In this document: positions 1 through 15,735 of the stretch, one piece after another
Layout: each line of letters begins with the position of its first letter
Numbering within the stretch: position 1 is the stretch's first letter
The notes under the pieces: generated by a model
Database searches by the model: none
Told to the model about the DNA's origin: nothing
Seen by the model: only the letters and a program-made list of their open reading frames with translations
From: a virus
Lineage: Duplodnaviria > Caudoviricetes
IMG/VR virus record: IMGVR_UViG_3300021960_000017
DNA: 64,000 nucleotides
Strand: one strand, 5' to 3'
Made by a program: the position numbers and the translations under genes

Positions 1-912
1 GAAGTTGCAGAGCAAAGACTCTGGGACATTATGGTACACAACATACAGGGCATAGAAAACTTAGTTAAATACGTGGGGAGTTTACCTGATGACTTACGAA
101 TGGTCCGCATTGGAAGTAATATCCTTCCTGCTTATACTGAGCCTAACTGGAGTTACTATTGGAAAGAACCTAGCGTTCAAAGGTATTGTGAGCGAGTATT
201 TGCAAAAGTTGGTGATGTTGCAAGGGCTCTTGATGTACGCCTGTCTATGCATCCTGGTCAGTTCACTGTTCTGGCAAGCGATAATCCTGATATTGTAGAG
301 CGTAGTCTAGAAGAGTTTGAATACCATACTGATATGATCAGATGGATGGGATATGGCAAACAGTTTCAGGACTTTAAATGTAATGTACATATCAGTGGCA
401 AACAGGGCCCAGCAGGCATTAAAGCAATACTACCAAAACTTAGCCCAGAAGCAAGAAACACAATCACTATAGAAAACGATGAAATGTCCTGGGGACTGGA
501 TGCAAGTCTAGAACTGGAACAGGATGTTGCACTAGTGTGTGACATTCATCATCACTGGGTAGCAACAGGAGAATATATTAATGCTAATGATGACAGGATT
601 AAGCGCATTCGCGACAGTTGGCGTGGTGTGCGTCCTGTTATTCATTTCAGTGTATCACGAGAAGATGTATTGGTTGGCTTCCCTCAGAATGTGCTTCCTA
701 GAATGCACGATCTATTAGAAATCGGTCACAAAAAAGCAAAACTTAGAGCACACTCGGATTACTATTGGAATCACAAGGTTAACAAGTGGGCCTGGAGTTT
801 TAAAGACGACTTTGATATTATGTGCGAAGCAAAGTGTAAGCAGGTTGCTAGTATTGACTTTTACAATCAGATGACAGGAAGTAATGTCAGTCCTTACCTA
901 GCAGATAAATAA
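1..912 (+). CDS. uvsE: UV damage endonuclease (UvsE/UvdE), 5' end probably outside window
   Basis: RLSMHPGQFTVL, ENDE, DIHHH, RAHSD and MCEAKCK motifs; frame is open back to base 1. Confidence 0.9.
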   Translation, partial: EVAEQRLWDIMVHNIQGIENLVKYVGSLPDDLRMVRIGSNILPAYTEPNWSYYWKEPSVQRYCERVFAKVGDVARALDVRLSMHPGQFTVLASDNPDIVERSLEEFEYHTDMIRWMGYGKQFQDFKCNVHISGKQGPAGIKAILPKLSPEARNTITIENDEMSWGLDASLELEQDVALVCDIHHHWVATGEYINANDDRIKRIRDSWRGVRPVIHFSVSREDVLVGFPQNVLPRMHDLLEIGHKKAKLRAHSDYYWNHKVNKWAWSFKDDFDIMCEAKCKQVASIDFYNQMTGSNVSPYLADK

Positions 913-982
913 ATTTAGCAACGCCGGTATAATCCGACGTCAGACCAAATGGACGCTATGGTAACTTCCATTTATCAATGAT

Positions 983-1011
983 TTGACATTGAAACGCCCT
1001 CTGTATATAAT
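983..1011 (+). promoter_or_regulatory. sigma70-type promoter for the tctA operon
   Basis: TTGACA-17-TATAAT. Confidence 0.7.
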
Positions 1012-1047
1012 TTATATTATTAGCACCCAACTGTTATAGGTTTAATT

Positions 1048-2379
1048 ATGTTAGAACTATCATATGTTGTTCTTAGCGGTATTTTTGTGGGTTTGGTTGC
1101 AGGGCTATTGCCAGGTCTTGGCTCAACGGCAATATTACTATTGGCTCTGCCAGTTCTCTATACGCTTCCGCCAGAACTTTGTATAATCTACTATGCAGTA
1201 GCAATACAAAGTTCACAGTTTAGTGGAAGTGTGAGTGCAATTAATTTTGGAATGATGGGAGAACTTACTAGTTATCCTGCCCTTATGGAAAGGCAAAGCA
1301 TTCTTAAAAACAATCTACAAAAAACTGCATTACGGTTTACTGCACTGGGAAGTGCTATAGCCTGTATTATTCCTGCCTTAAGTTTGTACTGGTTACTGGA
1401 ATGGTTTAAAGACCAGCATACTATTATGCGTACAGACTTTATATTCGGTATAACACTTGTTATAATATTATTTTGTTTACTTTATAAAAGCAACAAGAAA
1501 ATAGTAAATGCTATATTAATTTTACTTGGTATTATTATATCTCAAGTAGGTTTAAGAAATCAAGGAGCGGCAGAAAGAGAATTCCTAACATTTGGACAAC
1601 CATGGTTATATGGTGGTATCCCAATGATAAGTGTACTTGCAGGACTAATTGCGGTGCCTTTAGTAATTAGGTATATCACCTGGAAAGAAAATAACGATGT
1701 AATTGGCATAAGCAAAGTAACAGAAACTGCTCCTAGATTTCCGTTTGCAAGTGTTTTACGCGGAGGTATCCTAGGATTGTTTACTGGTTTACTTCCTGCT
1801 ATAGGCACACAAATCGGTAGTAACCTAGCATGGTATGTAGAAAAAAAACTAAAGCCAAGCAATAGTAATCAACATGTCATGGCTAGATTAGTTGCTGCTG
1901 AAACTGCAAATAATGGTAGTCAGATCACTGTTTTGGTTCCTTTGCTTATAATAGGTATTGCTATTGTTCCAAGTGAAATGCTCTTGTTAAGCATACTGGA
2001 AACAAAATTTTGGATGCCTGGCCAGAACACATTTGATATATTAGGGTTGAACTTTTACCAACTAATAATACTTTCATTAATAACTGCAAGTATTGTCTCA
2101 TATCTTAGTTGTTATACTTTTCTATCCTTAATCTATCGTTTCTTAAAAAATAATCTTATATTATTAAACCGATTAACATTAATAATAATGACCGTGGCAG
2201 TCGTATATTCAGGAAGTCTTGTAGAAGCAAGAATGTTTTTTCTTGCTACATTTATGGCTTTTGCTGGATTGGCTATATGGTTAAAAAATGTAGACTTTAT
2301 TCCTTTTGTTGCTGGATATTTTATTGGAGATATCTTTATTGACAGTTGGGTAATATTAAGTTACATTTATAGTAATTAA
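1048..2379 (+). CDS. tctA: Tripartite tricarboxylate transporter large permease (TctA family), divergent
   Basis: Multi-TM; duplicated GLLPGLG / GLLPAIG motif, AAETANN, PFVAGYFIG. Confidence 0.8.
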   Translation: MLELSYVVLSGIFVGLVAGLLPGLGSTAILLLALPVLYTLPPELCIIYYAVAIQSSQFSGSVSAINFGMMGELTSYPALMERQSILKNNLQKTALRFTALGSAIACIIPALSLYWLLEWFKDQHTIMRTDFIFGITLVIILFCLLYKSNKKIVNAILILLGIIISQVGLRNQGAAEREFLTFGQPWLYGGIPMISVLAGLIAVPLVIRYITWKENNDVIGISKVTETAPRFPFASVLRGGILGLFTGLLPAIGTQIGSNLAWYVEKKLKPSNSNQHVMARLVAAETANNGSQITVLVPLLIIGIAIVPSEMLLLSILETKFWMPGQNTFDILGLNFYQLIILSLITASIVSYLSCYTFLSLIYRFLKNNLILLNRLTLIIMTVAVVYSGSLVEARMFFLATFMAFAGLAIWLKNVDFIPFVAGYFIGDIFIDSWVILSYIYSN

Positions 2380-2397
2380 ACATTTAAGGAGTAACAT

Positions 2398-3258
2398 ATG
2401 TTTAATAAAATTATGACTGGAGCTCTAGTCATTTTAGGCTTATCACTTGGAAACGCAAGTGCTAGCGAAACAATCAACTTCTTTGTTGGACATGGCAATG
2501 GTGGTTTGTCTAGTGCATTTCAAACCAAAGTAGCTACAGGTTTAAAAGACAAGGGTTGGAATATTAATTTTAAAATCATTGGTAACTGCGGGAAAGTAAA
2601 AGCGGACCTTGATAGTTCAAACGAGCCAATGATTGCTGGCTGGGGTGCTGATTGGAATGCAGACAGTAAAAATGTTTGCTATAACCCACCATCAGCTGAT
2701 GCTTTTGTTGATGTGTTTGTTATTAGTCCACGCCTATTATGTGGGCCATTAGGCGACGCAAACTTCAAACTCGAAAAAGGTAAGAAGTATGTAGTAGGTG
2801 TTAATGAAGGACAGAATCACCAAGTATTACTAAACGATTTAGGTGCGAAGTTAGGTATAACTTTTAAAGTAGTTGAATATAGGAATTCAGGATTTATTAA
2901 ACGTGCGATGCAGGCAAAAGAAATTGATGCATGGTATACTACAAAAGGTCTAGTTGAACATCAATCCGGACAACAGAAATGTTTGTATGGTACTCTAACT
3001 ACACCACTAGATGGTATTACTCCATTAAATACTGTACTTAATACAGACAATGTTTACTCAAGTTTCGTAGGATATCTTATCACTAATAATAAGTTTAGTG
3101 CAGATACCCGCAAGAAACTAGTAGCAGACATTAATGACATTATCAAAAGTGCTGAGTACAGAAGTGCACTAAAGTCCACTGGTAGTTATGTAACTGACGA
3201 TAACAGTGAAGCACAGGTAGACTATGTAAAGGCTACAGCCAAGGCTTTTGCAAAGTAA
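2398..3258 (+). CDS. Periplasmic substrate-binding protein, TctC/Bug-like (divergent)
   Basis: Signal peptide, early GxGNGGxS segment, position after tctA; strong SD AAGGAG. Confidence 0.55.
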   Translation: MFNKIMTGALVILGLSLGNASASETINFFVGHGNGGLSSAFQTKVATGLKDKGWNINFKIIGNCGKVKADLDSSNEPMIAGWGADWNADSKNVCYNPPSADAFVDVFVISPRLLCGPLGDANFKLEKGKKYVVGVNEGQNHQVLLNDLGAKLGITFKVVEYRNSGFIKRAMQAKEIDAWYTTKGLVEHQSGQQKCLYGTLTTPLDGITPLNTVLNTDNVYSSFVGYLITNNKFSADTRKKLVADINDIIKSAEYRSALKSTGSYVTDDNSEAQVDYVKATAKAFAK

Positions 3259-3260
3259 GC

Positions 3261-3923
3261 ATGAAGTTTTTAGATTACGGTGATCAAGGCCTACTGGTAG
3301 ACTTTGGAGACACAGTCTCCCAAGAGTTAAACCAGGAAATCCTTGATTACTGTAATTTACTCAGGGAAAAAAACTTTCCTGAGATAGCATATGTTATACC
3401 TACTTATAACAAACTTACAGTATATTTTAAATCACCACTAAGCGATCAAAATCCTGTTAGAAACTTTTTAAGTTCTAAAAATATAAGCCTAGTTAGCGGT
3501 AAATCTAAAACAATCGAAATACCTGCATGTTTTGAACCCGAGTTTGGGTTAGATATACAACGGATAGCAGATTACTGTAACGTTACTTCCCATAAATTGA
3601 TAGACCAATTTTGCAGCAAGCCATATTATGTATATGGTTATGGGTTTTTGCCAGGCATGCCAAAATATGGTGACACAGATTTTATAGCACCCAAAAGATT
3701 AGATAAGCCCAGGGAAAATGTGCCCAAAGGTAGTATAGGTAGTGTAGAAAAATATTGTAGTGTTTACACTGAACAGATTTCTGGGGGGTGGAATATTATT
3801 GGCAGAACACCTGTGAAATTTTTTAACAAAGATAGTGAAAGCCCTTGTTTGGTAAATCCTGGAGATTTAATACAATATTTTCCTGTAACTTCCAAAGAAT
3901 ATAAAAATTATGCCAACAATTAA
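3261..3923 (+). CDS. pxpB: 5-oxoprolinase subunit B / allophanate hydrolase subunit 1 (KipI-like)
   Basis: YGDQGLLVDFG, IPTY, YGFLPGMP, RENVPKGSIG, GGWNIIGRTP, PGDLIQ. Confidence 0.9.
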   Translation: MKFLDYGDQGLLVDFGDTVSQELNQEILDYCNLLREKNFPEIAYVIPTYNKLTVYFKSPLSDQNPVRNFLSSKNISLVSGKSKTIEIPACFEPEFGLDIQRIADYCNVTSHKLIDQFCSKPYYVYGYGFLPGMPKYGDTDFIAPKRLDKPRENVPKGSIGSVEKYCSVYTEQISGGWNIIGRTPVKFFNKDSESPCLVNPGDLIQYFPVTSKEYKNYANN

Positions 3924-4815
3924 ATTTTTAAATGCAGGACTACATTGTAGTTTTCAGGATACTGGCAGACTAGGATATCAACATCTAGGTATTAGTCCCA
4001 GCGGATGTATTGATAATAAGATTTATAATTTAGTTGATACTGCATTAGATAACGCAGGCTGTGTTTTAGAGTTCGCTGAGATAGGGCCCAGTATACAAAT
4101 AATATCAGGTACTGTTGTAGTCTGTTTAATTGGAGACTTTAACTTTAATATTATTAAGCAAGGTAAAAATTATACTGGCGATATTTTTAAAATTTACCAC
4201 CTATACCCAGGAGATATATTAGAAGTAGGCAAAACTAAGGATTTAGTTTATGGTTATATAGGTTTCAAAAATAGTCCTGGTCATACTCCTAGTTTTGGCA
4301 GTTATAGTATGAATAAGTATAATAAATTGGGATATAACAATGGAAACAATTTTAGTAAAGATGACATCTTATTTTTAAAACCAGCAAAAGATTTTGAAAT
4401 TCTTAATCATGAACAAGATATTAGCCTTAGTAGTACAGATATCTTTGTAACACCTGGACCACAATTTAATAAATTTACATTAACCCAAATAGATAAATTT
4501 TTTAGCAGTCAATATACAGTAACAAACAAACGTGACAGAATGGGCATGTGGTTAGATGGACCAAAACTAAAGTATCAGATAACCCAGGATTTAATGAGTG
4601 AAGGCATTGTTAGGGGAGCAATACAAATAACCCCAAGCGGTGATTGTGTTACTCTTTTAAGTCACCATGGTGTCACTGGAGGATATCCTAAAATTGCTAT
4701 TGTAAGTAACATTAGTTTTAGAAATTTAGCTCAATGTAAAGAAGGTACTGATATAAAATTTGTATTAATTGATGAAATAGAAAGTAGACGTTTATATGAA
4801 CTTACCAGTAGATGA
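3910..4815 (+). CDS. pxpC: 5-oxoprolinase subunit C / allophanate hydrolase subunit 2 (KipA-like)
   Basis: SFQDTGRLGYQHLGISPSG, TPGPQ, DRMG, GAIQI, TGGYPKIA. Confidence 0.9.
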   Translation: MPTIKFLNAGLHCSFQDTGRLGYQHLGISPSGCIDNKIYNLVDTALDNAGCVLEFAEIGPSIQIISGTVVVCLIGDFNFNIIKQGKNYTGDIFKIYHLYPGDILEVGKTKDLVYGYIGFKNSPGHTPSFGSYSMNKYNKLGYNNGNNFSKDDILFLKPAKDFEILNHEQDISLSSTDIFVTPGPQFNKFTLTQIDKFFSSQYTVTNKRDRMGMWLDGPKLKYQITQDLMSEGIVRGAIQITPSGDCVTLLSHHGVTGGYPKIAIVSNISFRNLAQCKEGTDIKFVLIDEIESRRLYELTSR

Positions 4816-6040
4816 TCTTTATAAAATACCAGCTTTTGTCAGAAAGTTTGGTGTTTATAAACATAAAGACAAGTATTATACTAATAAGTATAGAGCATTA
4901 AAAGCTGCTGGTACTGATTATGTCCAGTGGATATTTAACGATGATGTTTACGCAAAATACGATTTTACAAAAGAACCAAGTGAAGACATATATAGTCTAT
5001 ATGCTAAAAGAGCTTGGCAAATCAGAGAAAAATTTGATAAAGTTGTTATTTATTTTAGTGGCGGTATAGATAGCACCTGTGTTCTAAGAACATTTGTAGA
5101 CAATAATATTCCTATTGATGCAGTAGTAGTGTGTGGCGCATGGTCAGGCGGCAAACACTCCGATATCAATACAGCCGAACAAACTAAAGTTGCCATACCC
5201 TATTTAAAAATGATAGAGCGGGAACGCAATATAAAACTTAATGTTCACTTTTTAGATGTAGTAAATGCTCATAGACATTATAATGAAGATTGGATTTATT
5301 CTAATAGTTATAACCTTGTACCAGCATGCATAGCTTATAACTATTATGATCAGGATCCCTTTTTACAAAATATAATGATGCAAGGCAATGCATGTACAGT
5401 ACGTGGAGTAGATAAACCACGTATTATATGTGAAGATGGCAAATGGTATCTAGCGTTTTTAGATGTTACCCTTGGCGGCGTTACTTCATATAGTAACTAC
5501 GAGGAAAAGCCTATACACTTAACTGATGAATTTTTTTATTGGTCACCTGATTTAGTAGAGTTAGTAATTAAACAAGCCCACGTTATAGTTGGTGAATTTG
5601 AGAGAAGATTTAGTAAAGAGGAATGTGAAACTAAGTTTACTAAATTGTCTAAATTTGACAAAATTGGATACGGTAATTTAGTAGAACCTATTGTATATGG
5701 CAGGTATGTAAGGCAAGCAATAGGTGCAGATAGGCCCTATTTTAGTCTTACTCCGCCGTATAGTAGTGTATACAATCCAAAATCCTGGTGGTTTTTCAAT
5801 GCTAAAGATGAGTTTAAAAAAGATGTGAGTTTATTTGTTGAGGGTATCAGTAATCTAACTAATATAATTGACCCAATGCATTTTAATAAAGTTCCTAATG
5901 ATAAAAAATTTAATACATGGATAAAAAATGCACCAATAGATAAATTTATTATCCCAGAAATAGGAAGCAATAGCCCTCTTTTTGGAACTGTTGGCTGTTG
6001 GAGCCCCTGGTACCATATTAAAGATTATGAATCACAATAA
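4796..6040 (+). CDS. PP-loop adenine nucleotide alpha-hydrolase (asparagine synthase-like) protein
   Basis: YFSGGIDS PP-loop; overlaps the pxpC stop. Confidence 0.6.
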   Translation: MNLPVDDLYKIPAFVRKFGVYKHKDKYYTNKYRALKAAGTDYVQWIFNDDVYAKYDFTKEPSEDIYSLYAKRAWQIREKFDKVVIYFSGGIDSTCVLRTFVDNNIPIDAVVVCGAWSGGKHSDINTAEQTKVAIPYLKMIERERNIKLNVHFLDVVNAHRHYNEDWIYSNSYNLVPACIAYNYYDQDPFLQNIMMQGNACTVRGVDKPRIICEDGKWYLAFLDVTLGGVTSYSNYEEKPIHLTDEFFYWSPDLVELVIKQAHVIVGEFERRFSKEECETKFTKLSKFDKIGYGNLVEPIVYGRYVRQAIGADRPYFSLTPPYSSVYNPKSWWFFNAKDEFKKDVSLFVEGISNLTNIIDPMHFNKVPNDKKFNTWIKNAPIDKFIIPEIGSNSPLFGTVGCWSPWYHIKDYESQ

Positions 6041-7102
6041 ACTTATTTGAATTTTGTTGAAGTCGGAGTCGCTCCAACGATAAGGATATTCGCAAGTTTG
6101 ATCTGAAGTTTGTATTCTATATACATCTAGGTGACGAGTTAGTATATTCTGAACTGTCTCTGAGTCTTTTGTCTCAAAACTCTTATTAAGATCTACTTGG
6201 GCTACTAATGGGTGCCCAATAGTTAAACTTGGATCTTTTGGATCCCATCCATGTTTTTTTAACCATTCTTTAAACTGATCTATACGTTCGTGTCTAGATG
6301 GCAAATCCTTTATAGATTTACTCCAACTAATGTCAAAGTCTGCAGCGGCTTCTATTTGCGGCCTAAGTGCAGTAGTTATAAGATCATCTATGTCTGCGTC
6401 GTTTTCATCATTAAACACTTCCCAGTGTGTCTTACTAACTGACTTGTTTACCCCTATATATACTTCACCTAAGTCCCTGTGTAAGGCATCTACACCAAAT
6501 AAATCATAGTCTTTTTCTGGATCTAATTTAAATCTAGGTGTATTCAAAAAGCAAAAAAGTTGATTATACTGTGCCCATTCAGGGACAGATAACCTTTTCC
6601 TTTCTGATAATGCAAAACTTTCTAGTTCATGACACAATAAATTTAACCGTCTAATACAATGTTTAATTGCTGGACTTGCTACATTATAGTAACTACTAAT
6701 ACTTCCGCTATGTCCTTGCAAGTCTTCAAAATATCTGTGCAGCCAATTAGTCTTATCGTGTATTAATCTATATCCGGGTTTTCCTGGTCCTACTTCCCCT
6801 GATGTAACTACATTATCAGTTGTAAACTCATCATTAATAACGTATGGCGTTATTCCAGGCCATTCATAGCAGTTAATTTGTGAAATACAATCATTGATTT
6901 CTTTGCAAATATATTCTAGGTTACGTTCTGTAAATCCCATCCAGTGATAGTTCTTTTCCAAGTGATAACCATTTTTTAATGTTGTATTTAAATTTGTAAG
7001 CCACTTATGACTAAGCGAGTTGTCCACCACATTAATGTATACTGGGCATAACTCTCCAGTTTTACTTCTTAGTGTAACTATAATTTGATCTAGTGTCTTC
7101 AT
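6032..7102 (-). CDS. Hypothetical protein
   Basis: 356-aa ORF, no recognisable motif. Confidence 0.75.
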   Translation of the reverse strand: MKTLDQIIVTLRSKTGELCPVYINVVDNSLSHKWLTNLNTTLKNGYHLEKNYHWMGFTERNLEYICKEINDCISQINCYEWPGITPYVINDEFTTDNVVTSGEVGPGKPGYRLIHDKTNWLHRYFEDLQGHSGSISSYYNVASPAIKHCIRRLNLLCHELESFALSERKRLSVPEWAQYNQLFCFLNTPRFKLDPEKDYDLFGVDALHRDLGEVYIGVNKSVSKTHWEVFNDENDADIDDLITTALRPQIEAAADFDISWSKSIKDLPSRHERIDQFKEWLKKHGWDPKDPSLTIGHPLVAQVDLNKSFETKDSETVQNILTRHLDVYRIQTSDQTCEYPYRWSDSDFNKIQISLL

Positions 7103-7104
7103 TC

Positions 7105-7132
7105 AAAAAAAAGGGTGACATAAAGTCACCCC
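7105..7132 (-). terminator. Rho-independent terminator
   Basis: GGGTGAC-TTTAT-GTCACCC stem-loop followed by T8 on the minus strand. Confidence 0.8.
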
Positions 7133-7262
7133 TCCTAATTTGTACTGCTTCCAGTTTTTATGATATGGGATAATTTCGCCATATGACAGTGGTTTATCCG
7201 GCACTGCCTCCAAACGTTTCATCGTTTCTTACTGTCTCTGATCCTCTAGGAAGTATAATTAT

Positions 7263-7550
7263 TTACTTCTTGGATCCAGTCTGGTTAACAAAATCATAAA
7301 ACTTTTCTGCTGCTTCAAGAATCTTCTCTGCACCTGGAACTTCAGGGGCTTCAAACTTTGTTACAACTTCGCCGTCTTGCTTCTCTACTGAAAGTGACCA
7401 AGCACCAAATCTTGAATGGTAATCATTCCAAACATGGTCCTTTGCCATTTCAAGAATCTTTGTACGAATCTCGTAACCATTCTTGTTAAAATTAACTTGG
7501 GGCATAAAGGCTTTCGCAGCCTGTGTAAACTCTTCTGGTGTTTTAAACAT
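7263..7550 (-). CDS. Hypothetical protein (start MFKTPEEF)
   Basis: ORF track; SD-like ACGGAG before the ATG at 7550. Confidence 0.7.
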   Translation of the reverse strand: MFKTPEEFTQAAKAFMPQVNFNKNGYEIRTKILEMAKDHVWNDYHSRFGAWSLSVEKQDGEVVTKFEAPEVPGAEKILEAAEKFYDFVNQTGSKK

Positions 7551-7610
7551 TTTTTTTCTCCGTCTGTTAGTGTGTGTTATGTTGCATCGCAACATATTAT
7601 TTATCTACAA

Positions 7611-7686
7611 TGGTGGAGATGAGGAGGATCGAACTCCTGACCTTCGGAATGCAAATCCGACGCTCTCCCAGCTGAGCTACATCCCC
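7611..7686 (-). tRNA. tRNA-Ala(UGC)
   Basis: GGGGATG acceptor, TCGGA-TTTGCAT-TCCGA anticodon arm, GTTCGA T-loop, CCA end. Confidence 0.95.
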
Positions 7687-7750
7687 ATTGTCCTTGTATT
7701 ATATGACAGAATTATTTATAATGCAATAAATTTATTTTTCACATTTTTGG

Positions 7751-7778
7751 TTGACTACCCGTATATCTGTGTTAATAT
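7751..7778 (+). promoter_or_regulatory. Early sigma70-type promoter
   Basis: TTGACT-16-TAATAT with TGT just upstream of the -10. Confidence 0.6.
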
Positions 7779-7808
7779 CATCATAGTTAAACAAACAGGA
7801 GCAAGCAC

Positions 7809-8147
7809 ATGGTAGGCATTTACAAAATCCACCAAATCGTGTTAGATGATGATCTTGTAGACCTCATTAATAAGGAAGGCTGGAAGTGTCATGTTAAGGC
7901 TCTTGCTTATATAGAAGCAATGGATAAAGGCGACGCCAAACTAGGTGTAATGCACGATTGCTACTCACATGTTGGAGATATTATTGCTGATGATTTAGAA
8001 CATGTGTTTGAAGTAGGCAATATTGGTCCTGAGGATAGGATCCAACGGCATGGTCGTATGCGTAGTGTAAGTGTTGGTGATATTGTTGAAGATCCCAATG
8101 GTGTTAAGCACGTAGTTGCCAAGTTTGGCTTTGAGGAGTTAGCATGA
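7809..8147 (+). CDS. Hypothetical protein, YodL-like motif
   Basis: RSVSVGDIV resembles the YodL signature. Confidence 0.5.
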   Translation: MVGIYKIHQIVLDDDLVDLINKEGWKCHVKALAYIEAMDKGDAKLGVMHDCYSHVGDIIADDLEHVFEVGNIGPEDRIQRHGRMRSVSVGDIVEDPNGVKHVVAKFGFEELA

Positions 8148-8245
8148 ACCTACTAAATGCTATAGTGCTCTATGGTTTAGGTTTGCAAAACATTGCTATT
8201 AATTATTCGCCAATAATTCAAACGTGGACTTAGAAAGGATTCGAT

Positions 8246-8497
8246 ATGGCTAGAACAGCAGGAAAAGACAAGCGTATTATGGATCTTAAGGCAAAAGCAC
8301 CTAAAGTTCCGCCTAATACATGTCCTTATATTAACTTTGTGCAAGAAATCATCGAAGATCATTTTAAGTATGATGATAGTGTGGATGAACACCGCAAGGC
8401 TACCTTGCTTGAAACTCTAGAGTATATTAGGAAAGCAAACGAAACTCTCAGAGACTCTTCACTTTATTGGTATCAACAGTACAAAAAAGTTGCATAA
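8246..8497 (+). CDS. Hypothetical protein
   Basis: ORF with SD AAAGGA. Confidence 0.7.
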   Translation: MARTAGKDKRIMDLKAKAPKVPPNTCPYINFVQEIIEDHFKYDDSVDEHRKATLLETLEYIRKANETLRDSSLYWYQQYKKVA

Positions 8498-8510
8498 ATT
8501 TGAAAAATGG

Positions 8511-8538
8511 TTGACTCCAGGTGTTTTTGTGCTATTAT
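8511..8538 (+). promoter_or_regulatory. Early sigma70-type promoter
   Basis: TTGACT-16-TATTAT, extended -10 TGC. Confidence 0.65.
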
Positions 8539-8571
8539 GATAATATGAAAACAAACACAAGGACCAAGCAA

Positions 8572-8913
8572 ATGAACAAGATTTATGCAGTTATCGAGGA
8601 CTTAGACAACAAGCGCAACGAGCTAGGCTTTGAAACTCGCTGGAGCATGTTCAACGAAGAGATTGTTAACCTCACAGATAAGGTTGTTGATGAAGAGCGT
8701 GAAACATATCGCATTACATATCGTGCATATGATGTGAACATGCAAGAATGCGAGTTCAGCCACTTCACACACGAAAACACTGTAGAAGGTTTTTGGAGAG
8801 CAGCAGAGTCAGTTTTCCAATCAGCCAAACGCCACTGTGGTGACTGGCATGTGTTTGTAGAAGGCTTCGAGCTGGTAGAAGACGGCAGCTTTAGAATGAT
8901 TGCTGGGTCCTAA
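8572..8913 (+). CDS. Hypothetical early protein (start MNKIY)
   Basis: AAGGACCA leader before the ATG at 8572. Confidence 0.7.
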   Translation: MNKIYAVIEDLDNKRNELGFETRWSMFNEEIVNLTDKVVDEERETYRITYRAYDVNMQECEFSHFTHENTVEGFWRAAESVFQSAKRHCGDWHVFVEGFELVEDGSFRMIAGS

Positions 8914-8923
8914 GGAGGACAGT

Positions 8924-9094
8924 ATGGAAATTGAAGTAGGTAGAGTTTGGCTAGTAGTTGATCGCAAGGACGGCAGCAACTACTTTGCAGAAGACGATGG
9001 CTCTCTGTCAGGTATGCTCAGTGCTACTGCTAAGAAAGCCAAAGGTGATAAACAAACCTGGGTAGATGAAGATAACTTCTATATCATGATGTAA
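8924..9094 (+). CDS. Hypothetical protein (start MEIEVG)
   Basis: SD AAGGAGG before the ATG. Confidence 0.6.
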   Translation: MEIEVGRVWLVVDRKDGSNYFAEDDGSLSGMLSATAKKAKGDKQTWVDEDNFYIMM

Positions 9095-9104
9095 GGATTG
9101 CGCT

Positions 9105-9335
9105 ATGAAAGTAGGCGACAAAATAGAACTCAAAGGCCGTAGCAAACACGGTAAAAACCGTATTCAAGCGTTTGGCTCTGAGTTTACAGTAGGTGAGATA
9201 CGTTCACGTATTCACACTATTACCCATAGACATATGCCAGGTCCGTTTGCGCTGGTGTTTAACTCTAAGGCTGACAGTATGCGTTGGATCGCTGTTGAGG
9301 ATGATCCTGATTTCGAGTTAGTTTCGGACAATTAA
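9105..9335 (+). CDS. Hypothetical protein
   Basis: ORF with SD AAGGA. Confidence 0.65.
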   Translation: MKVGDKIELKGRSKHGKNRIQAFGSEFTVGEIRSRIHTITHRHMPGPFALVFNSKADSMRWIAVEDDPDFELVSDN

Positions 9336-9346
9336 ACTAAATAGGG

Positions 9347-9559
9347 TTGTTGTTGCTAGGAGGTTGCGCCCAAATGTCTGTAAATTCAGTCGACTATGTC
9401 TATCTGACAGGATCCCGAGAATTATTAAACGAAGTAAAATACAAACAAGATTTAAGTTATCCCTGGGCCAGCCAGGATGTTGAGCATAATCGGCAAATTG
9501 TTAAAGAATATTTAGAATTTAGATACAAAACAGCGCAAGAAAAAATAGACAACGATTGA
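9347..9559 (+). CDS. Hypothetical small protein, start uncertain
   Basis: Fills the gap between flanking genes. Confidence 0.4.
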   Translation: MLLLGGCAQMSVNSVDYVYLTGSRELLNEVKYKQDLSYPWASQDVEHNRQIVKEYLEFRYKTAQEKIDND

Positions 9560-9583
9560 CTTTACTCCTTAACGTGCTATTAT
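9556..9583 (+). promoter_or_regulatory. Early sigma70-type promoter
   Basis: TTGACT-16-TATTAT, extended -10 TGC. Confidence 0.65.
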
Positions 9584-9613
9584 AGGCATATGATGAACGT
9601 TGAGGAGCGGATT

Positions 9614-9751
9614 ATGTCTAAACTGTATCGTAAAGCACGTAACACTGTTGCTACAAACCTTTTTATCAAAAATAGCCCGTATAAGCCACGAGTTGTTCAA
9701 AACAAAAAAGCCTATTCACGTAAAAAAAAGCACCGGGGGGAGGGCGAATAA
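9614..9751 (+). CDS. Small basic protein, ArfA-like (not in ORF track)
   Basis: 45 aa MSKLYRKARNTVATNLFIKNSPYKPRVVQNKKAYSRKKKHRGEGE; SD GAGGAG; TAATG coupling to the next gene. Confidence 0.6.
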   Translation: MSKLYRKARNTVATNLFIKNSPYKPRVVQNKKAYSRKKKHRGEGE

Positions 9752-10176
9752 TGTCCAGCCTTAACAGACTACAGAAGTTTGTTCAGCGCAATGACATGTA
9801 TGAGCGTAGGTTTGAGGCTAGCCAAGAACTAGCACTAGAAGCATATGACATGCTCAATCAGTATGTGTTTGATAACGGATTAGACCCCTGTCCTATTACG
9901 GTGCGACGCACAAGAGGGTATTGGGGTCTATGCGACGGCCGCATTGTGGACGACGAATGCCGTGTAAAGGAAATTACCCTTACCAAACGGTATCCATTTA
10001 AAGCGATGTTCATTAACACTCTAGCACATGAAATGGTGCATCAGTTTCAGTGGGAAGTATTAAGCAACGAGCGCATGGAACAGGGCAAAGCACCTATTAT
10101 GAGCCATGGCCCTAGTTTTTATTGCTGGAAACCTGCCCTAAAAGAATACAATATTATATTGACTCGAGAGTACTAA
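9751..10176 (+). CDS. SprT-like metalloprotease domain protein
   Basis: TLAHEMVH and SHGPSF. Confidence 0.8.
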   Translation: MSSLNRLQKFVQRNDMYERRFEASQELALEAYDMLNQYVFDNGLDPCPITVRRTRGYWGLCDGRIVDDECRVKEITLTKRYPFKAMFINTLAHEMVHQFQWEVLSNERMEQGKAPIMSHGPSFYCWKPALKEYNIILTREY

Positions 10177-10197
10177 TACTAGTATTATTAACAATAC

Positions 10198-10272
10198 GGC
10201 CCCATCGTCTAGCGGTTAGGACGCTGGCCTTTCACGCCGGAAACACGGGTTCGATTCCCGTTGGGGTCACCA
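10198..10272 (+). tRNA. tRNA-Glu(UUC)
   Basis: CTGGC-CTTTCAC-GCCGG anticodon arm, GTTCGA, CCA. Confidence 0.95.
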
Positions 10273-10286
10273 ATTCAGGTATTGTT

Positions 10287-10541
10287 ATGAGCGAATTTAA
10301 ACTTGGTATATTTAGACTATTAAAACGCATCATAGGTGGCAGCAGTGTCCTCCTTGCAGTTGTTTATACCATAGGACATATTTTTATTGCCATGCTCTGC
10401 AACAATTTAATTACTGGAGCAGAGTTTACACTAGCAGCACTAGATGCGATTATAGAGCCCTGCATTAACGGTGTATGGTTTTATGTTCTCCATAAATTAT
10501 GGAGATCATTTTATAAAGATGCTACTGTATTCGAAAAATAA
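10287..10541 (+). CDS. DUF2061-like small membrane protein
   Basis: YTIGHIFIA...IIEPCINGVWFYVLHKLW pattern. Confidence 0.6.
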   Translation: MSEFKLGIFRLLKRIIGGSSVLLAVVYTIGHIFIAMLCNNLITGAEFTLAALDAIIEPCINGVWFYVLHKLWRSFYKDATVFEK

Positions 10542-10549
10542 ATATTTGC

Positions 10550-11104
10550 ATGATTGGCTTACGAACTCTAGTCCTCAGCGCAAACTATATGCCGGTGAGT
10601 ATATTTCCACTGCATACTGTACCTGTAGAAGATGCTATAACAAGAATTTTTAACGGCAACATGCATGCCGTGTTTAATTACGATCGCAAAATTGGACACC
10701 CATTGCTAGATATGTACTGGCCCAGTGTAGTTGCTCGTAACAAGAGCACCCGCATAAAAGAGAGTGTCAGGTTTGCTAGAGACACTGTGTATTACAGAGA
10801 CCATGGCATTTGTCAGTACTGTGAAACTCCACTTGATATAAAGGAAACTACATATGATCATGTTATTCCCCGCAGTCGTGGTGGCGAGCATGTCTGGGAG
10901 AATGTAGTTATGAGTTGCCGTAGTTGTAACACTGCAAAGGGAAATAAGATGCCCCGGGATACCTTTGTTCCACGGCAAAGACCGTTTAAGCCTACCTATT
11001 GGCAGTTGTTAAACAATCGTCGTAAATTTCCTATCATGCTTGATCACCCTAGTTGGGTGAATTTCTTTGGCGATTGGGAAGCAGAGATATTAATATCAAA
11101 ATGA
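10550..11104 (+). CDS. HNH endonuclease
   Basis: RDHGICQYC, DHVIPRSRGG, ENVVMSCRSCN. Confidence 0.9.
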   Translation: MIGLRTLVLSANYMPVSIFPLHTVPVEDAITRIFNGNMHAVFNYDRKIGHPLLDMYWPSVVARNKSTRIKESVRFARDTVYYRDHGICQYCETPLDIKETTYDHVIPRSRGGEHVWENVVMSCRSCNTAKGNKMPRDTFVPRQRPFKPTYWQLLNNRRKFPIMLDHPSWVNFFGDWEAEILISK

Positions 11105-12552
11105 AATTTGAATGTTTAGAAAACATCAATGATGAAACACGCGATGTTGTTATAGTCACAGTTCCATGGACTGACAGTAGTATTCCACTAATGGCACCAG
11201 CACAACTTAAACCTATTGTTGAAAGTGCTGGCATGAGTTGCTTGGCAACCGATATAAATGCTGAAGTGTTTAGATGGACACAGACACACGAGAACGTTAC
11301 TCCGTTATTGGATTTTTTCTTTAATGAAAAATTAAGTGATGTTGTTAAAGATGACTTGTTTAATTTATTTAAAAATATAGCAGAGCAAATACTCGCTTGG
11401 AAGCCCAAGATAGTTGGACTTAGTTTGTTCAGTTATGTTTGTCAAACAAGTGCAAAATGGATATCATGGTTTATAAAAAAAATAGATCCCAATGTAAAAA
11501 TTATTATTGGTGGCGCAGGATGTCTTCCAACTTTTACAGGCCCTAGTGAGTTTGCAAAAAACACAATCGCAGCAGGATTAGTTGACTACCATATCCGTGG
11601 TGATGGTGAGCATGCACTATATCAATTTCTAATAGATAACAAACAATACATTGGAATCAATAGCCTTGAATGGCGTGAATTGTCTATAGATGAGATGCGA
11701 CAATTGCCAATGCCAGATTATGATAATTATAAATTTGATGTGTATAATAAAAAAGCGTTACCGTTAGTTGGTAGTCGTGGCTGTGTACGAAAATGTACAT
11801 TCTGTGATTATATTGCTAATTGGAAAAAATTTAATTGGCGAATGGCTGATGATATTTTTGCTGAAATGCAGAGTCAATATAAAAAATATGGGATACGATA
11901 TTTTAAGTTTCAAGACAGTTTAACAAACGGAAATATGAAAGAGTTTACAAAACTAACCCAATTGCTTAGTGAATACAATAGGACAAATCCTAATGAAAGT
12001 TTTAGGTGGAGTGGGTACTATATTTTTAGAGAACACAATGCAAATACTGCAAACGAATGGAAATTGGTATATGAAAGTGGTGCTGAAAATTTAGCAGTTG
12101 GCATTGAAAATCTTAATCAACGTATACGCTTTAATATTGGTAAAAAATTTAGTAATGAAGCCATTGATGTACACTTATCCTATGCAAAGAAATATAACAT
12201 TACTTTGCAGTTATTAAACATTGTTGGTTATGTAGATGAAACTCAAGACGATATAGACTATATTAAACAATGGTTGGTTAACCATGTTGAATACAAAGAC
12301 ACCTTGTTTATACAATGGGGAGGCACTTTAGGCATCTTTCCTAATACCTGGTTAGAACGCAATTTTGATAATCTAGGTATAGAAAAAATAGACGAATCGC
12401 CACAAGGATGGATAAACAAAAGTATAGACAGTACACCAGCAAAAAGAGCACAATGGGCAAAAGATCTAAATGAATTAAGCACTAGTTTAGGGTATAAAGT
12501 TGCTGATAACCTTGACAATCATTATCTTTTAGAGTTATTGATAAATGACTAA
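11101..12552 (+). CDS. B12-binding radical SAM enzyme
   Basis: N-terminal VGLS...IIIGG cobalamin-binding domain; SRGCVRKCTFC CxxxCxxC. Confidence 0.85.
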   Translation: MKFECLENINDETRDVVIVTVPWTDSSIPLMAPAQLKPIVESAGMSCLATDINAEVFRWTQTHENVTPLLDFFFNEKLSDVVKDDLFNLFKNIAEQILAWKPKIVGLSLFSYVCQTSAKWISWFIKKIDPNVKIIIGGAGCLPTFTGPSEFAKNTIAAGLVDYHIRGDGEHALYQFLIDNKQYIGINSLEWRELSIDEMRQLPMPDYDNYKFDVYNKKALPLVGSRGCVRKCTFCDYIANWKKFNWRMADDIFAEMQSQYKKYGIRYFKFQDSLTNGNMKEFTKLTQLLSEYNRTNPNESFRWSGYYIFREHNANTANEWKLVYESGAENLAVGIENLNQRIRFNIGKKFSNEAIDVHLSYAKKYNITLQLLNIVGYVDETQDDIDYIKQWLVNHVEYKDTLFIQWGGTLGIFPNTWLERNFDNLGIEKIDESPQGWINKSIDSTPAKRAQWAKDLNELSTSLGYKVADNLDNHYLLELLIND

Positions 12553-12967
12553 TTTCAATGAATGTAAAGTTAAAATTATTTTCAAATATCACAGTTGTAA
12601 TAACAAACTTATGACTGTATTAGTCGATGATATACTTCTCAAACCATCTGATGATAATTATGCCATTTTTGAAAAAGAGATAAATTTGCCAACAGAACTA
12701 GTTATAAAAACTGCTGGCAAGAATCACAAATACGATACAAAAATTGATGCGGCAGGGAACATATACGAGGATCTGGCTGTACAAATAGAAAGTATATCGC
12801 TGGACTCGTTTGAATTATCTGATGTGTATCTTCATCAAAAAATAAAAATTTTAACCGAATCTGGAGATGAATATACTACAAGTTATTTTGGATTCAATGG
12901 CACTATAATGTTAAATTTTTCAGAAAGCAATGTCTTTTCACAAGTTTTAAAGGAAAACACACAATGA
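12545..12967 (+). CDS. Hypothetical protein
   Basis: Coupled ORF; FGFNG C-terminal motif resembles 53381..53839 (LSWNG). Confidence 0.7.
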   Translation: MTNFNECKVKIIFKYHSCNNKLMTVLVDDILLKPSDDNYAIFEKEINLPTELVIKTAGKNHKYDTKIDAAGNIYEDLAVQIESISLDSFELSDVYLHQKIKILTESGDEYTTSYFGFNGTIMLNFSESNVFSQVLKENTQ

Positions 12968-13755
12968 ATAAAAATATATTAATTAGTGGATGTTCGTTGG
13001 CAATGGGATATGGTCTTCCTGAAACTAGAAATAATCCAAAAAATTGGCCTAATCAAGTAGTAAATACAATTTACCCGGAAGCACACATAACCAATATTGC
13101 AGAGCCTGGGTACAACAACGACACAATATTTCTCAAAACATCAGAAGAACTTTTAAAAAACAAATATGATTGTGTTATTGTAGAATGGTCAGAAACTACA
13201 CGGTTAAATTTTAACATAGGATTAGAAATATATAATACATTATCTAGGGTTGCTAATGACCATGACTTTAATTTAGTAAATGGACAAACAATTAAAGCAG
13301 ACTGGTTGTATAAAAATATTAAACAAAATATAGTTAGAATTTCTAACGATCATTGGTTCATTTTGAACATGGTAAGATATTTAAATATCTTAATCAGATT
13401 ACAAAAGCCACATGGTGAAATATTTTTTGTAAACGGCGGCGGCCATTGGCCTGACAATTATTTTAATAGACAGAAGTCCTGGTTCGATGCTGATGATGCT
13501 TATACAAAAAAAGAAATCCTACAAATGGATTTCAGAGATGATGAAGATATAGCAAAACTTTATAACAAAATACATGATGATTATGAAAATGCTGGCGGAA
13601 TCCATGAAGATCTTTGGCTTAATTTATATTGGTCATTGCATAGATCAAAAATAGATACAATATCTGATACAGATCTGCATCCAGGATTATTATCGCAAGA
13701 TAAATTTGCCAAAGAGTTTATTTTAAAAATTCAAAATATTTACCAAAATATTTGA
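12964..13755 (+). CDS. SGNH/GDSL-hydrolase-like hypothetical protein
   Basis: ISGCSLAMG, PGYNND, DLHPG. Confidence 0.5.
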   Translation: MNKNILISGCSLAMGYGLPETRNNPKNWPNQVVNTIYPEAHITNIAEPGYNNDTIFLKTSEELLKNKYDCVIVEWSETTRLNFNIGLEIYNTLSRVANDHDFNLVNGQTIKADWLYKNIKQNIVRISNDHWFILNMVRYLNILIRLQKPHGEIFFVNGGGHWPDNYFNRQKSWFDADDAYTKKEILQMDFRDDEDIAKLYNKIHDDYENAGGIHEDLWLNLYWSLHRSKIDTISDTDLHPGLLSQDKFAKEFILKIQNIYQNI

Positions 13756-13780
13756 CAGGTAGTAAATAATATAGTATTAT
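13752..13780 (+). promoter_or_regulatory. sigma70-type promoter for tRNA-Thr
   Basis: TTGACA-17-TATTAT about 9 nt before the tRNA. Confidence 0.65.
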
Positions 13781-13789
13781 TATAACAAT

Positions 13790-13865
13790 GCTGGCGTAGC
13801 TCAGTTGGTAGAGCAGGGGTTTTGTAAACCTCAGGTCCGCGGTTCAAGTCCGTGTGCCAGCACCA
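13790..13865 (+). tRNA. tRNA-Thr(UGU)
   Basis: GGGGT-TTTGTAA-ACCTC anticodon arm, GTTCAA, CCA. Confidence 0.95.
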
Positions 13866-13891
13866 CTTTTTTAACTTAATAGGCTTGTACT

Positions 13892-14095
13892 ATGGAAGAT
13901 GTAGTAAAAGGTGAGTTAGGCGACCTTATGGACGATAACGATTGGGCTATTATCTTTGACAAAGAAGGTAATGTTAGAGGTCTTTTTATTCCTGACGGAA
14001 TGCCTAATGGTGCAGTAGTTCCTGAAAACATTCTTAAAATTTTAGAAGAGGTTGGGATAGGTGAAGATGACTTTGCAGACCCTGTTGTGCACTGA
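13892..14095 (+). CDS. Hypothetical acidic protein
   Basis: ORF track. Confidence 0.6.
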   Translation: MEDVVKGELGDLMDDNDWAIIFDKEGNVRGLFIPDGMPNGAVVPENILKILEEVGIGEDDFADPVVH

Positions 14096-14535
14096 TGCGT
14101 AAAATTGTTCTTGCTTTTTTAGCATTATTTTTTATTAGTACTACTCCTGGATACAGTTTTGAAGTTATGGGTAGTAAGCGTGTGCCAACTGTTGTTCCAA
14201 GAGATACCTACCTTAGAGATCCACAATATGTAAGTGCTCCAGTCGTTAGTGCAGATCGTGCTTATGAAGTAACTTACTTTGATCAAATGGGGCATATTTG
14301 TGCTCATGAGCAAGTTCCTATTAACCCTGTAGACTATAGAAACTTTTGGGACCAATTGTTTAATCCCAGAGGCCCTGTATATACCGAGCCACAGTACAAC
14401 TGTTATGATACAGCAGAAAGACAAGAGCAACGAGTCTTTGTAGGGTATATGGTTACATTTGAATATCTTGGCGAATACTATACTAAACTAGTAGACTATC
14501 GCCCAGGAAAATATATTAGAGTTTTAATAAAATAG
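14095..14535 (+). CDS. Hypothetical exported protein
   Basis: N-terminal signal peptide. Confidence 0.65.
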   Translation: MRKIVLAFLALFFISTTPGYSFEVMGSKRVPTVVPRDTYLRDPQYVSAPVVSADRAYEVTYFDQMGHICAHEQVPINPVDYRNFWDQLFNPRGPVYTEPQYNCYDTAERQEQRVFVGYMVTFEYLGEYYTKLVDYRPGKYIRVLIK

Positions 14536-14536
14536 G

Positions 14537-14564
14537 TTGACGCATTCATAAAATTTGCTATAAT
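14537..14564 (+). promoter_or_regulatory. Early sigma70-type promoter
   Basis: TTGACG-16-TATAAT, extended -10 TGC. Confidence 0.7.
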
Positions 14565-14597
14565 AGGTATATTGTTAAAAACAAACATGGAAGGACC

Positions 14598-14780
14598 ATG
14601 ACGATGTTAGCGAATGATTTGGATTATGCAGCGAATGAGGCAATTCATGGCTTGCAACTTAACTGGAATGATGCAGTAAAGTTTGTTTGCCGTAATGCAA
14701 AAGTTGACCAGCGTGAGGCATCAAAAGCCCTAGAGTCTATTTTAACTGGTTACAAGCGGAAAGAATACGCAATTGACTAG
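14598..14780 (+). CDS. Hypothetical protein
   Basis: ORF with SD AAGGA. Confidence 0.6.
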   Translation: MTMLANDLDYAANEAIHGLQLNWNDAVKFVCRNAKVDQREASKALESILTGYKRKEYAID

Positions 14781-15006
14781 TCTTGATAATGTTATCAATG
14801 CACGGGTTGACTTTTTAGCCCGTGCAGTAATAGCAAAAATCGAAAGAATTTTAGACAAGCATGGAGATCTAGATAGATACGATGTCTATTGTGAATGGTA
14901 TGAAGACGATGCTACAGAGGATGATATTGAAATATGGCTACGTGATCGCAGCGATGATAGCCGTATCGGTCCTCTTGATCTTGCGTCCATGATGAGTAAA
15001 CAATAA
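14773..15006 (+). CDS. Hypothetical protein
   Basis: ORF overlapping the previous stop. Confidence 0.5.
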   Translation: MTSLDNVINARVDFLARAVIAKIERILDKHGDLDRYDVYCEWYEDDATEDDIEIWLRDRSDDSRIGPLDLASMMSKQ

Positions 15007-15016
15007 GAGTTAAATT

Positions 15017-15108
15017 GGATGGTTACCCAAGAGGCTGAAGGGGCGGGATTGCTAATCCTGTAGGGCGGTTTTGCTGTCGCGAGAGTTCGAATCTCTCACC
15101 ATCCGCCA
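15017..15108 (+). tRNA. tRNA-Ser(GCU)
   Basis: CGGGA-TTGCTAA-TCCTG anticodon arm, long variable arm, CCA. Confidence 0.93.
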
Positions 15109-15116
15109 TATTTTGA

Positions 15117-15191
15117 GCGGGCATCGTATAATGGCCATTACGTGGCGTTGCCAACGCTAGGATAGGAGTTCGATTCTCCTTGCCCGCTCCA
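15117..15191 (+). tRNA. tRNA-Gly(GCC)
   Basis: TGGCG-TTGCCAA-CGCTA anticodon arm, GTTCGA, CCA. Confidence 0.93.
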
Positions 15192-15196
15192 AAAAA

Positions 15197-15238
15197 ATTG
15201 GTTAGACTGCTAAATAAAATATAGGAGGTCTAACCAAT
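15197..15238 (+). promoter_or_regulatory. Translation-blocking hairpin with a late-promoter motif in its loop
   Basis: ATTGGTTAGAC / GTCTAACCAAT perfect 11-bp stem covering the spacer and the AT of the ATG; TAAATA and AGGAG in the loop. Confidence 0.7.
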
Positions 15239-15668
15239 GCCAAAGAGTAATTGTTTAAATTGTAATAAGGAAATTCATTACAATCCCAGCCAAAGAAGGG
15301 GATTATATTGTTCTAATGTTTGTCAACAAGAGTATCGTATAAACGAAGCAGTTGCCACTGGAACTTATACTAAAGCAAACGGATATAGTTGGTTCAAGAA
15401 GAATACAAAATATGAATGTAGTTGTTGCGGCATAAGTGAATGGCAAGGTAAAGAACTTCGTTTACAGATAGATCATATTGACGGCAACAATAAGAACAAT
15501 GTAATAGAAAACTTTAGATACCTTTGTCCTAACTGTCATACACAGACAGAAACATGGGGTGTCAAAAGTGCTAGTGATGAAGGTAAACAAAGAATTAAAG
15601 AGGCAGCCAAACTAGGGAGAGCAATACAACTTGGTAGGGTGCCAGAAGGAACAAAATTGGGGGTGTAG
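15237..15668 (+). CDS. HNH homing endonuclease inside the tRNA cluster
   Basis: CLNC...YCSNVC zinc knuckle; CSCCG, LQIDHIDG, NFRYLCPNCH. Confidence 0.85.
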   Translation: MPKSNCLNCNKEIHYNPSQRRGLYCSNVCQQEYRINEAVATGTYTKANGYSWFKKNTKYECSCCGISEWQGKELRLQIDHIDGNNKNNVIENFRYLCPNCHTQTETWGVKSASDEGKQRIKEAAKLGRAIQLGRVPEGTKLGV

Positions 15669-15735
15669 CTCAGTTGGTCAGAGCGCGAGCCTGTCACGTT
15701 CGAGGTCGCGGGTTCGAGCCCCGTCACTCCCGCCA
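15659..15735 (+). tRNA. tRNA-Asp(GUC)
   Basis: CGAGC-CTGTCAC-GTTCG anticodon arm, GTTCGA, CCA; first 10 nt overlap the HNH ORF end. Confidence 0.95.

Follow-up and report, generated by a model that had tools for sequence, protein, structure and literature searches.

A TctA/TctC-like transporter, a PxpB–PxpC pair and a PP-loop enzyme in a gene cassette of uncultured aquatic phages

Tripartite tricarboxylate transporter (TTT) systems of the TctABC type, together with the Bug receptors (BugD, BugE, Bug27, TphC, MatC and AdpC), are built on a full-length TctA permease and a secreted, two-lobed receptor of the TctC fold; this class of receptor and the DctP class of TRAP (tripartite ATP-independent periplasmic) transport systems both bind organic acids. 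The nutrient-uptake genes known from phages are mostly single receptors such as PstS, which in cyanophages is a phosphate-binding protein that works with the host Pst permease. In cellular genomes, the genes for the 5-oxoprolinase subunits PxpB and PxpC lie adjacent and overlapping in operons that also hold an importer (B. subtilis ycsF/kipI/kipA/ycsG and C. glutamicum pxpTABC), the pairing of a transporter with pxp genes being a known logic of 5-oxoproline use (PxpT, PMC13274462). A related pair, MSMEG_0435-0436, acts without PxpA: it clamps BCCP biotin and reduces the activity of acyl-CoA carboxylase (PMC13012033). Here we describe a cassette of five genes at positions 983 to 6040 of a 64,000-nucleotide stretch of viral DNA (the whole of which we call the window; Duplodnaviria, Caudoviricetes; IMG/VR record IMGVR_UViG_3300021960_000017), in which a TTT-type permease and receptor, a PxpB–PxpC pair (PxpBC) and a PP-loop enzyme occur together. 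Our preferred reading, held at about even confidence, is that the cassette imports a carboxylate and then adenylates and amidates it, or otherwise ligates it, at the expense of ATP, with a host-derived PxpBC pair as an add-on that uses host PxpA. The features of the locus are as follows.

31-912: UvdE endonuclease gene, directly upstream of the cassette
983-1011, + strand: sigma-70-type promoter, TTGACA-17-TATAAT, 12/12 consensus match
1048-2379, + strand: TctA-family permease, 443 aa (Pfam PF01970, 1.6e-52)
2398-3258, + strand: secreted, divergent TctC/Bug-type substrate-binding protein (SBP), 286 aa (family profile and predicted fold)
3261-3923, + strand: PxpB/KipI-like protein (CT_C_D), 220 aa (Pfam PF02682, 8e-47)
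3910-4815, + strand: PxpC/KipA-like protein (CT_A_B), 301 aa (Pfam PF02626, 1.8e-45)
4796-6040, + strand: phage-specific PP-loop (SGGIDS) enzyme, 414 aa (motif and predicted fold)

The gene order uvdE-tctA-SBP-pxpB-pxpC-PPloop is shared by the window and two further metagenomic lineages (L001-L003 and L006-L010), with protein identities of 29-70% across the three. Within the window, the spacing between successive open reading frames (ORFs) is +18, +2, -14 and -20 nt, with pxpC overlapping pxpB by 14 nt and the PP-loop gene overlapping pxpC by 20 nt (4 nt in L006). A strong ribosome-binding site (AAGGAG) is found in the cassette at the binding-protein gene only, and the remaining genes look translationally coupled; at its 3' end the cassette is overlapped by a convergent ORF whose 356-aa product is of unknown family. 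The promoter is the sole perfect 12/12 match in 700-7800. In L006, the region upstream of tctA is partly similar to it; L001, where tctA overlaps uvdE, has no such promoter sequence. In a T4-like phage, a TTGACA-17-TATAAT site would probably serve as an early promoter, and the cassette may likewise be transcribed early. The preliminary description of the window had reported one sigma70 promoter followed by five tight genes (tctA, a binding protein, pxpB, pxpC and a PP-loop ATPase) in a phage setting, with no PxpA or TctB, and on these points we agree: the promoter and the five plus-strand ORFs are as described; Pfam, a family profile, a motif and predicted folds give the same gene identities; and a tRNA cluster and PHROG matches lie in the window. 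No PxpA was found by tblastn with SAR11 PxpA across the 64-kb window, which is a weak test, and no TctB-like small ORF with multiple transmembrane (TM) segments occurs in 1-8200 except a shadow ORF inside uvdE, the intergenic gaps of the cassette being too small for a TctB gene. As to the single conserved unit implied by that description, all five genes do stay together in three lineages, but elsewhere the PP-loop and SBP genes occur without PxpBC.

This partial conservation runs through the comparison of the lineages and of more distant loci. Between the window and L006, identity is 66% for UvdE, 58% for the PP-loop enzyme, 57% for TctA, 41% for the binding protein, 31% for PxpB and 29% for PxpC. 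In three other loci (L019-L021), TctA, SBP and PP-loop genes abut without Pxp genes, and a fourth (L022), again lacking Pxp genes, has SBP-PPloop and, where the contig ends, a fragment of tctA; the PP-loop homologue of these four loci is matched at an hhalign probability of 98% and carries SGGLDS or SGGKDS. Further arrangements include abutting TctA-PPloop-TctC genes (L013) and the order PPloop-PPloop-TctA-SBP (L024). We surveyed the pairing in 78 uncultured viral IMG/VR loci, in which 99 PP-loop genes are flanked by 1.5 kb or more on each side. A binding-protein gene lies within 300 nt of the PP-loop gene in 57 of the 99 cases, within 1.5 kb in 70 and within 3 kb in 77. The partner receptor is either of the TctC type or of the TRAP DctP type (for example, one with a PF03480 match at 2.3e-44), the DctP-type cluster comprising 46 genes in 37 loci. 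On the PP-loop tree, the type of the adjacent receptor switches at least eight times; what the enzyme is linked to is thus "a carboxylate receptor" and not one protein. From these gene neighbourhoods, the conserved core of the cassette is the binding protein plus the PP-loop enzyme, which some loci supplement with TctA. Because both receptor classes bind organic acids and a permease joins in several lineages, the most economical interpretation is that a carboxylate imported from the surroundings is the enzyme's substrate. Islands with several pairs are common, as in L055, where about 12 kb hold three PP-loop, three TctC and two DctP genes. In L029, L041, L049, L055, L093 and L097, two or three PP-loop genes are interleaved with TctC- and DctP-type genes, and three tandem PP-loop genes with no binding-protein gene within reach are present in L099/L100.

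The permease and the receptor can both be placed among TTT components. The PF01970 match of TctA covers profile positions 3-416 of 423, i.e., its full length, the protein has many hydrophobic segments, and it is 57-64% identical to its L001/L006 orthologues. The binding protein bears a Sec-type signal peptide ending in ASA (followed by SE) and, as a single sequence, has no Pfam match, but a profile of 68 homologues from its family (86 representative clusters) matches the TTT substrate-binding protein 25hk_A end to end (E 5e-11). Its predicted structure (pLDDT 93.8) gives the same assignment: the top 16 Foldseek matches in the PDB are all TTT binding proteins (TM about 0.6-0.68), the named ones among them being BugE, TctC, TphC, Bug27, BugD and MatC. 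Two cysteines, C115 and C195, are invariant in the family and would fit a periplasmic disulfide. By hhalign, the family profile is unrelated to a 300-aa gene of L015 and to the DctP-type gene. Set against the TctABC systems, which it resembles in its full-length TctA permease and its secreted two-lobed TctC-fold receptor, the cassette differs in having no TctB, in a receptor too diverged for Pfam TctC, in a short permease (443 aa) that is 23-24% identical to that of the presumed host, and in being phage-encoded and coupled to an enzyme gene. Compared with phage PstS, it is alike in supplying from the phage a periplasmic receptor for a host-type uptake system, and unlike in using a TTT/TRAP receptor for another substrate class, in pairing it with a dedicated cytoplasmic enzyme, and in that several copies of the pair are often present. 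The window also encodes another TTT pair, distinct from the first, at positions 37454-39992: a 500-aa TctA (PF01970, 1.1e-93) is followed by a 347-aa TctC-like protein that matches a viral TctC profile (1.5e-10) and no Pfam family. This second pair stands downstream of a methyltransferase and two DUF6473 paralogues, with no adjoining PP-loop gene.

The PP-loop enzyme carries SGGIDS at residues 88-93; 45 homologues show no variation at S88, G89, G90 and S93 and almost none at D92. It also has family-specific motifs such as G204-x-D206-K207-P208, and it has neither a TM segment nor a signal peptide. In its predicted structure (pLDDT 92), residues 82-219 form the Rossmann-like alpha/beta core of the PP-loop fold and match MnmA, LarE and NadE, the best Foldseek matches of this core being the tRNA thiolase MnmA and LarE. 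Over the whole chain, the best structural match is asparagine synthetase B (AsnB; 1ct9, Z 11.6, 294 aligned residues, rmsd 5.8 Å), followed by beta-lactam synthetase and carbapenam synthetase (1jgt and 1q15, Z 10.4 and 9.1), in alignments of 284-294 residues at about 7-12% identity. The PP-loop fold and these AsnB-class top matches, taken from the structural model, point to carboxylate adenylation. With the AsnB class, the enzyme shares the SGGxDS PP-loop and, judging from the distant structural matches, perhaps the overall arrangement of the synthetase domain; unlike that class, it lacks the N-terminal nucleophile (Ntn) glutaminase domain (about 75 residues precede the PP-loop, with no N-terminal Cys), has its own motifs, and is seen only in viral or metagenomic sequence. 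Pfam holds no family for it, Asn_synthase included; an hhalign comparison of its profile with phage AsnB aligned the PP-loop alone; and PHROGs gives marginal QueC-like and NAD-synthetase matches (E about 0.009). Relatives are encoded on 257 viral stretches (IMG/VR pattern search), close-pattern IMG/VR searches with PxpC and the PP-loop protein gave no match, and in the Atlas 86 of the 100 nearest clusters have no common Pfam family, the three shown being 100% viral. The family was not found in 201 Pelagibacterales genomes, and it looks phage-specific. Among 50,697 GenBank phage records, blastn with positions 983-6040, TBLASTN with the binding protein and tblastn with the PP-loop enzyme or a typical IMG/VR member all returned no match, so the PP-loop family is known only from uncultured sequence. 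In L011/L012/L023, the PP-loop homologue is split into overlapping ORFs of 87 and 337 aa (2101-2364 and 2330-3343), an arrangement seen on at least two independent contigs that may reflect either a frameshift (programmed or otherwise) or a genuinely split gene.

The same observations could be read in quite another way, namely that the binding-protein/PP-loop pairs serve the phage–host interface or the modification of nucleic acids or proteins, and not nutrition. The secreted protein could then be a periplasmic sensor, decoy or exclusion factor, with tRNA, DNA precursors, a peptide or an envelope component as possible targets of modification by the enzyme. The multi-copy, rapidly diversifying islands (e.g., L055) would suit such a role, as would the MnmA and LarE matches of the core and the recurrence of radical SAM/SPASM genes nearby. 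However, transport remains the simplest account of two unrelated carboxylate-receptor families being interchangeable and accompanied by a permease in several lineages, and over the whole chain the structure matches the AsnB class better than tRNA enzymes; we therefore consider this interpretation quite unlikely. A narrower idea, that the gene encodes a tRNA enzyme and came to lie close to the tRNA cluster accidentally, was discarded, as the PP-loop gene pairs with binding-protein genes across many contigs. The radical SAM/SPASM genes recur near PP-loop genes in L007, L017, L087, L091 and L093, and the window itself encodes a B12-binding radical SAM protein at 11053-12552 (PF04055, 2.2e-08; PF02310, 8.7e-07).

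Where the receptor and enzyme are the core, PxpB and PxpC stand out as a later arrival: none of the surveyed phage loci outside the window's clade has Pxp genes. Pelagibacteraceae supply the majority of the 80 cellular sequences that best match the phage PxpC, and nearly all of the top 50 (30-36% identity), and in a maximum-likelihood tree the three phage PxpC sequences fall with twelve Pelagibacteraceae copies in one clade with 100/99 support, on branches three to ten times longer, in a tree subject to the caveats of long branches and shared AT-rich composition. The pair thus has a SAR11-like origin and is, as judged from these comparisons, a lineage-specific insertion that was picked up later. 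In the GenBank phage records, PxpC has only six matches (24-30% identity), in records that resemble host contigs filed as phage. Among solved structures, PxpB is matched by PH0987 (7.7e-38), KipI (2zp2, 1.1e-24) and YbgJ (5e-20), and PxpC best by MSMEG_0435 (9yx5_V, 1.3e-25) and then by YbgK (9.5e-20), YbgJ and YbgK being subunits of 5-oxoprolinase. Like the bacterial PxpABC operons, the cassette has adjacent, overlapping PxpB and PxpC genes beside an importer. It is unlike them in that no PxpA was found in the window, that its Pxp proteins score below equivalog level, that conserved PxpC positions including two arginines are lost, and that its transporter is of the TTT type and not, as in pxpTABC, NRAMP-like.

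In the mechanism that we favour, the secreted TctC-type protein would capture a periplasmic organic acid, and this carboxylate would be carried into the cell by the phage's TctA permease; the cytoplasmic PP-loop enzyme would then adenylate the carboxyl group (ATP to AMP and PPi) and pass it to ammonia or an amine, and this adenylation/amidation would trap or convert the imported compound. In the window's clade only, a PxpB–PxpC pair from a Pelagibacteraceae-type host would have been inserted between the binding-protein and enzyme genes, where its most likely role is a further step, carried out with host PxpA, on a lactam or carboxylate resembling 5-oxoproline, its specificity having probably drifted. 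The host itself is probably SAR11. Borrowing of host PxpA or TctB is possible in principle, and for PxpA it is feasible because three Pelagibacter genomes each carry pxpA beside pxpBC; the same three genomes have one or two complete TctCBA operons each, TctB included. Two proposals of the preliminary description are thereby kept in part. Its import-and-convert module stands as the best general reading for a carboxylate, but the PP-loop enzyme does not serve PxpBC as an accessory; the description's borrowing of host PxpA is workable, but a canonical 5-oxoprolinase role is uncertain because PxpB and PxpC evolve fast and are altered at conserved positions.

Several points weigh against this mechanism. 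The ligands and activities of all five proteins are predictions, and the likeness of the PP-loop enzyme to AsnB is distant (7% identity at the rmsd given above, with no Pfam Asn_synthase match), such that its substrate may instead be a nucleic acid or a protein. Multi-copy SBP/PP-loop islands are unusual for a simple nutrient gene. TctB is thought to be needed by characterised TTT systems, and none is present at the cassette. The low identity of the phage TctA to that of Pelagibacter means that the permease is not a recent host copy, and the assignment of a SAR11 host rests on one gene tree, that of PxpC, with its long branches and compositional bias. The Pxp proteins fall short of NCBIfam equivalog level, PxpB reaching 108.5 bits with TIGR00370 (cut-off 145.55) and PxpC 113.4 bits with NF045499 (cut-off 500), and between lineages they are only 29-46% identical, compared with 57-70% for their neighbours, i.e., they evolve much faster. 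Among 113 cellular PxpC sequences, 51 alignment columns show conservation of at least 90%; the window keeps 37 of these, L001 43 and L006 34, and in all three phage sequences two arginines and one proline among these positions are replaced. To our knowledge, the catalytic residues of PxpBC have not been established. A pair that is intact and coupled yet altered fits a changed specificity or a binding role.

A binding role would make PxpB–PxpC a protein-binding regulator, comparable to KipI/KipA, whose target is a histidine kinase, or to MSMEG_0435-0436, which could re-tune the carbon or lipid metabolism of the infected host, while the transporter and PP-loop enzyme carry out a separate function and merely share the operon. 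MSMEG_0435 (its pair is also PDB 3mml) is indeed the closest solved relative of the phage PxpC, KipI is among those of PxpB, and a non-enzymatic role of a PxpBC-type pair has been demonstrated (PMC13012033); no PxpA was found in the window, and fast evolution with substitutions that include two arginines would suit a changing protein interface. These likenesses are ones of homology. Against this reading, the nearest natural relatives of the phage pair are the SAR11 PxpBC encoded beside pxpA, and in all three lineages the pair sits between the SBP and enzyme genes in overlapping or abutting frames, which suggests one pathway. On balance we judge a regulatory pair unlikely, though a serious minority view. 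We are far more sceptical of the proposal in the preliminary description that the PP-loop enzyme replaces PxpA in a new three-part ATP-dependent enzyme with PxpB–PxpC, and regard it as highly improbable. In its favour are the overlap of pxpC with the PP-loop gene in both the window and L006 and, once more, the failure to find PxpA in the window. Yet the PP-loop family is paired with TctC/DctP receptors in dozens of contigs without PxpBC, and lacks PxpBC in every surveyed locus outside the window's clade; moreover, the PP-loop sequence is conserved between Pxp-bearing lineages (58-66% identity) while PxpBC drift (29-46%). A complex prediction for PxpB, PxpC and the PP-loop enzyme scored 0.00, which is evidence neither way.

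Carboxylate import followed by ATP-dependent ligation may also be one instance of something broader. In this extended form, which we think unlikely at present, the pairs would make up a diversifying aquatic-phage system in which each TctC or DctP receptor is matched to its own PP-loop ligase, dissolved organic acids being imported through host or phage permeases and adenylated or amidated into compounds that the cell needs; in the present phage, the system would have recruited a re-purposed, PxpA-independent PxpBC pair with a lactam or carboxylate chemistry not known from cells. We found no description in the literature of PxpBC-like genes, of TTT/TRAP receptor and PP-loop pairs, or of the whole cassette in phages, the sole mention of related phage genes being a passing one of a tctA domain on SUP05 viral contigs. 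What is added here is the interchange of TctC and DctP receptors, a phage-encoded TctA, and the fast-evolving, SAR11-derived PxpBC insertion. Where phage uptake genes have mostly been single receptors, this cassette brings a receptor and a permease together with a dedicated ATP-dependent enzyme that is confined to phages, and many uncultured aquatic phages carry the receptor/enzyme pair, frequently as multiple copies. Should the pairs indeed import and convert particular dissolved organic acids, they would constitute a new viral route for redirecting the flow of carbon and nitrogen in abundant plankton such as SAR11, and many viral "dark matter" enzymes, all of one large family, would gain a function. 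PxpB and PxpC are little understood, and the phage pair, a natural case kept without PxpA, could help to settle what the two do alone.

The wider window is compatible with a large phage, to which its six tRNA genes, PHROG matches and one-strand gene packing fit, and metagenome runs of marine, estuary and aquatic origin, belonging to several studies, contain the stretch. The tRNA genes (Ala, Glu, Thr, Ser, Gly and Asp) form a cluster just downstream of the cassette, at 7611-15735. PHROGs has no family for four of the five cassette proteins. UvdE is a conserved upstream neighbour of the cassette (window, L001, L006 and L008), and its nearest relatives in GenBank phages, at about 50% identity, are from jumbo phages of Erwinia and Dickeya. 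Farther along, positions 53855-56809 encode a multi-domain protein of 984 aa whose PHROG matches are cytidylyltransferase-like, ParB-like and transglycosylase-like, with a C-terminal match to the giant PHROG family phrog_10691, and positions 47820-50087 encode an ATP-dependent protease with two ATPase regions (phrog_4871, 3.4e-237).

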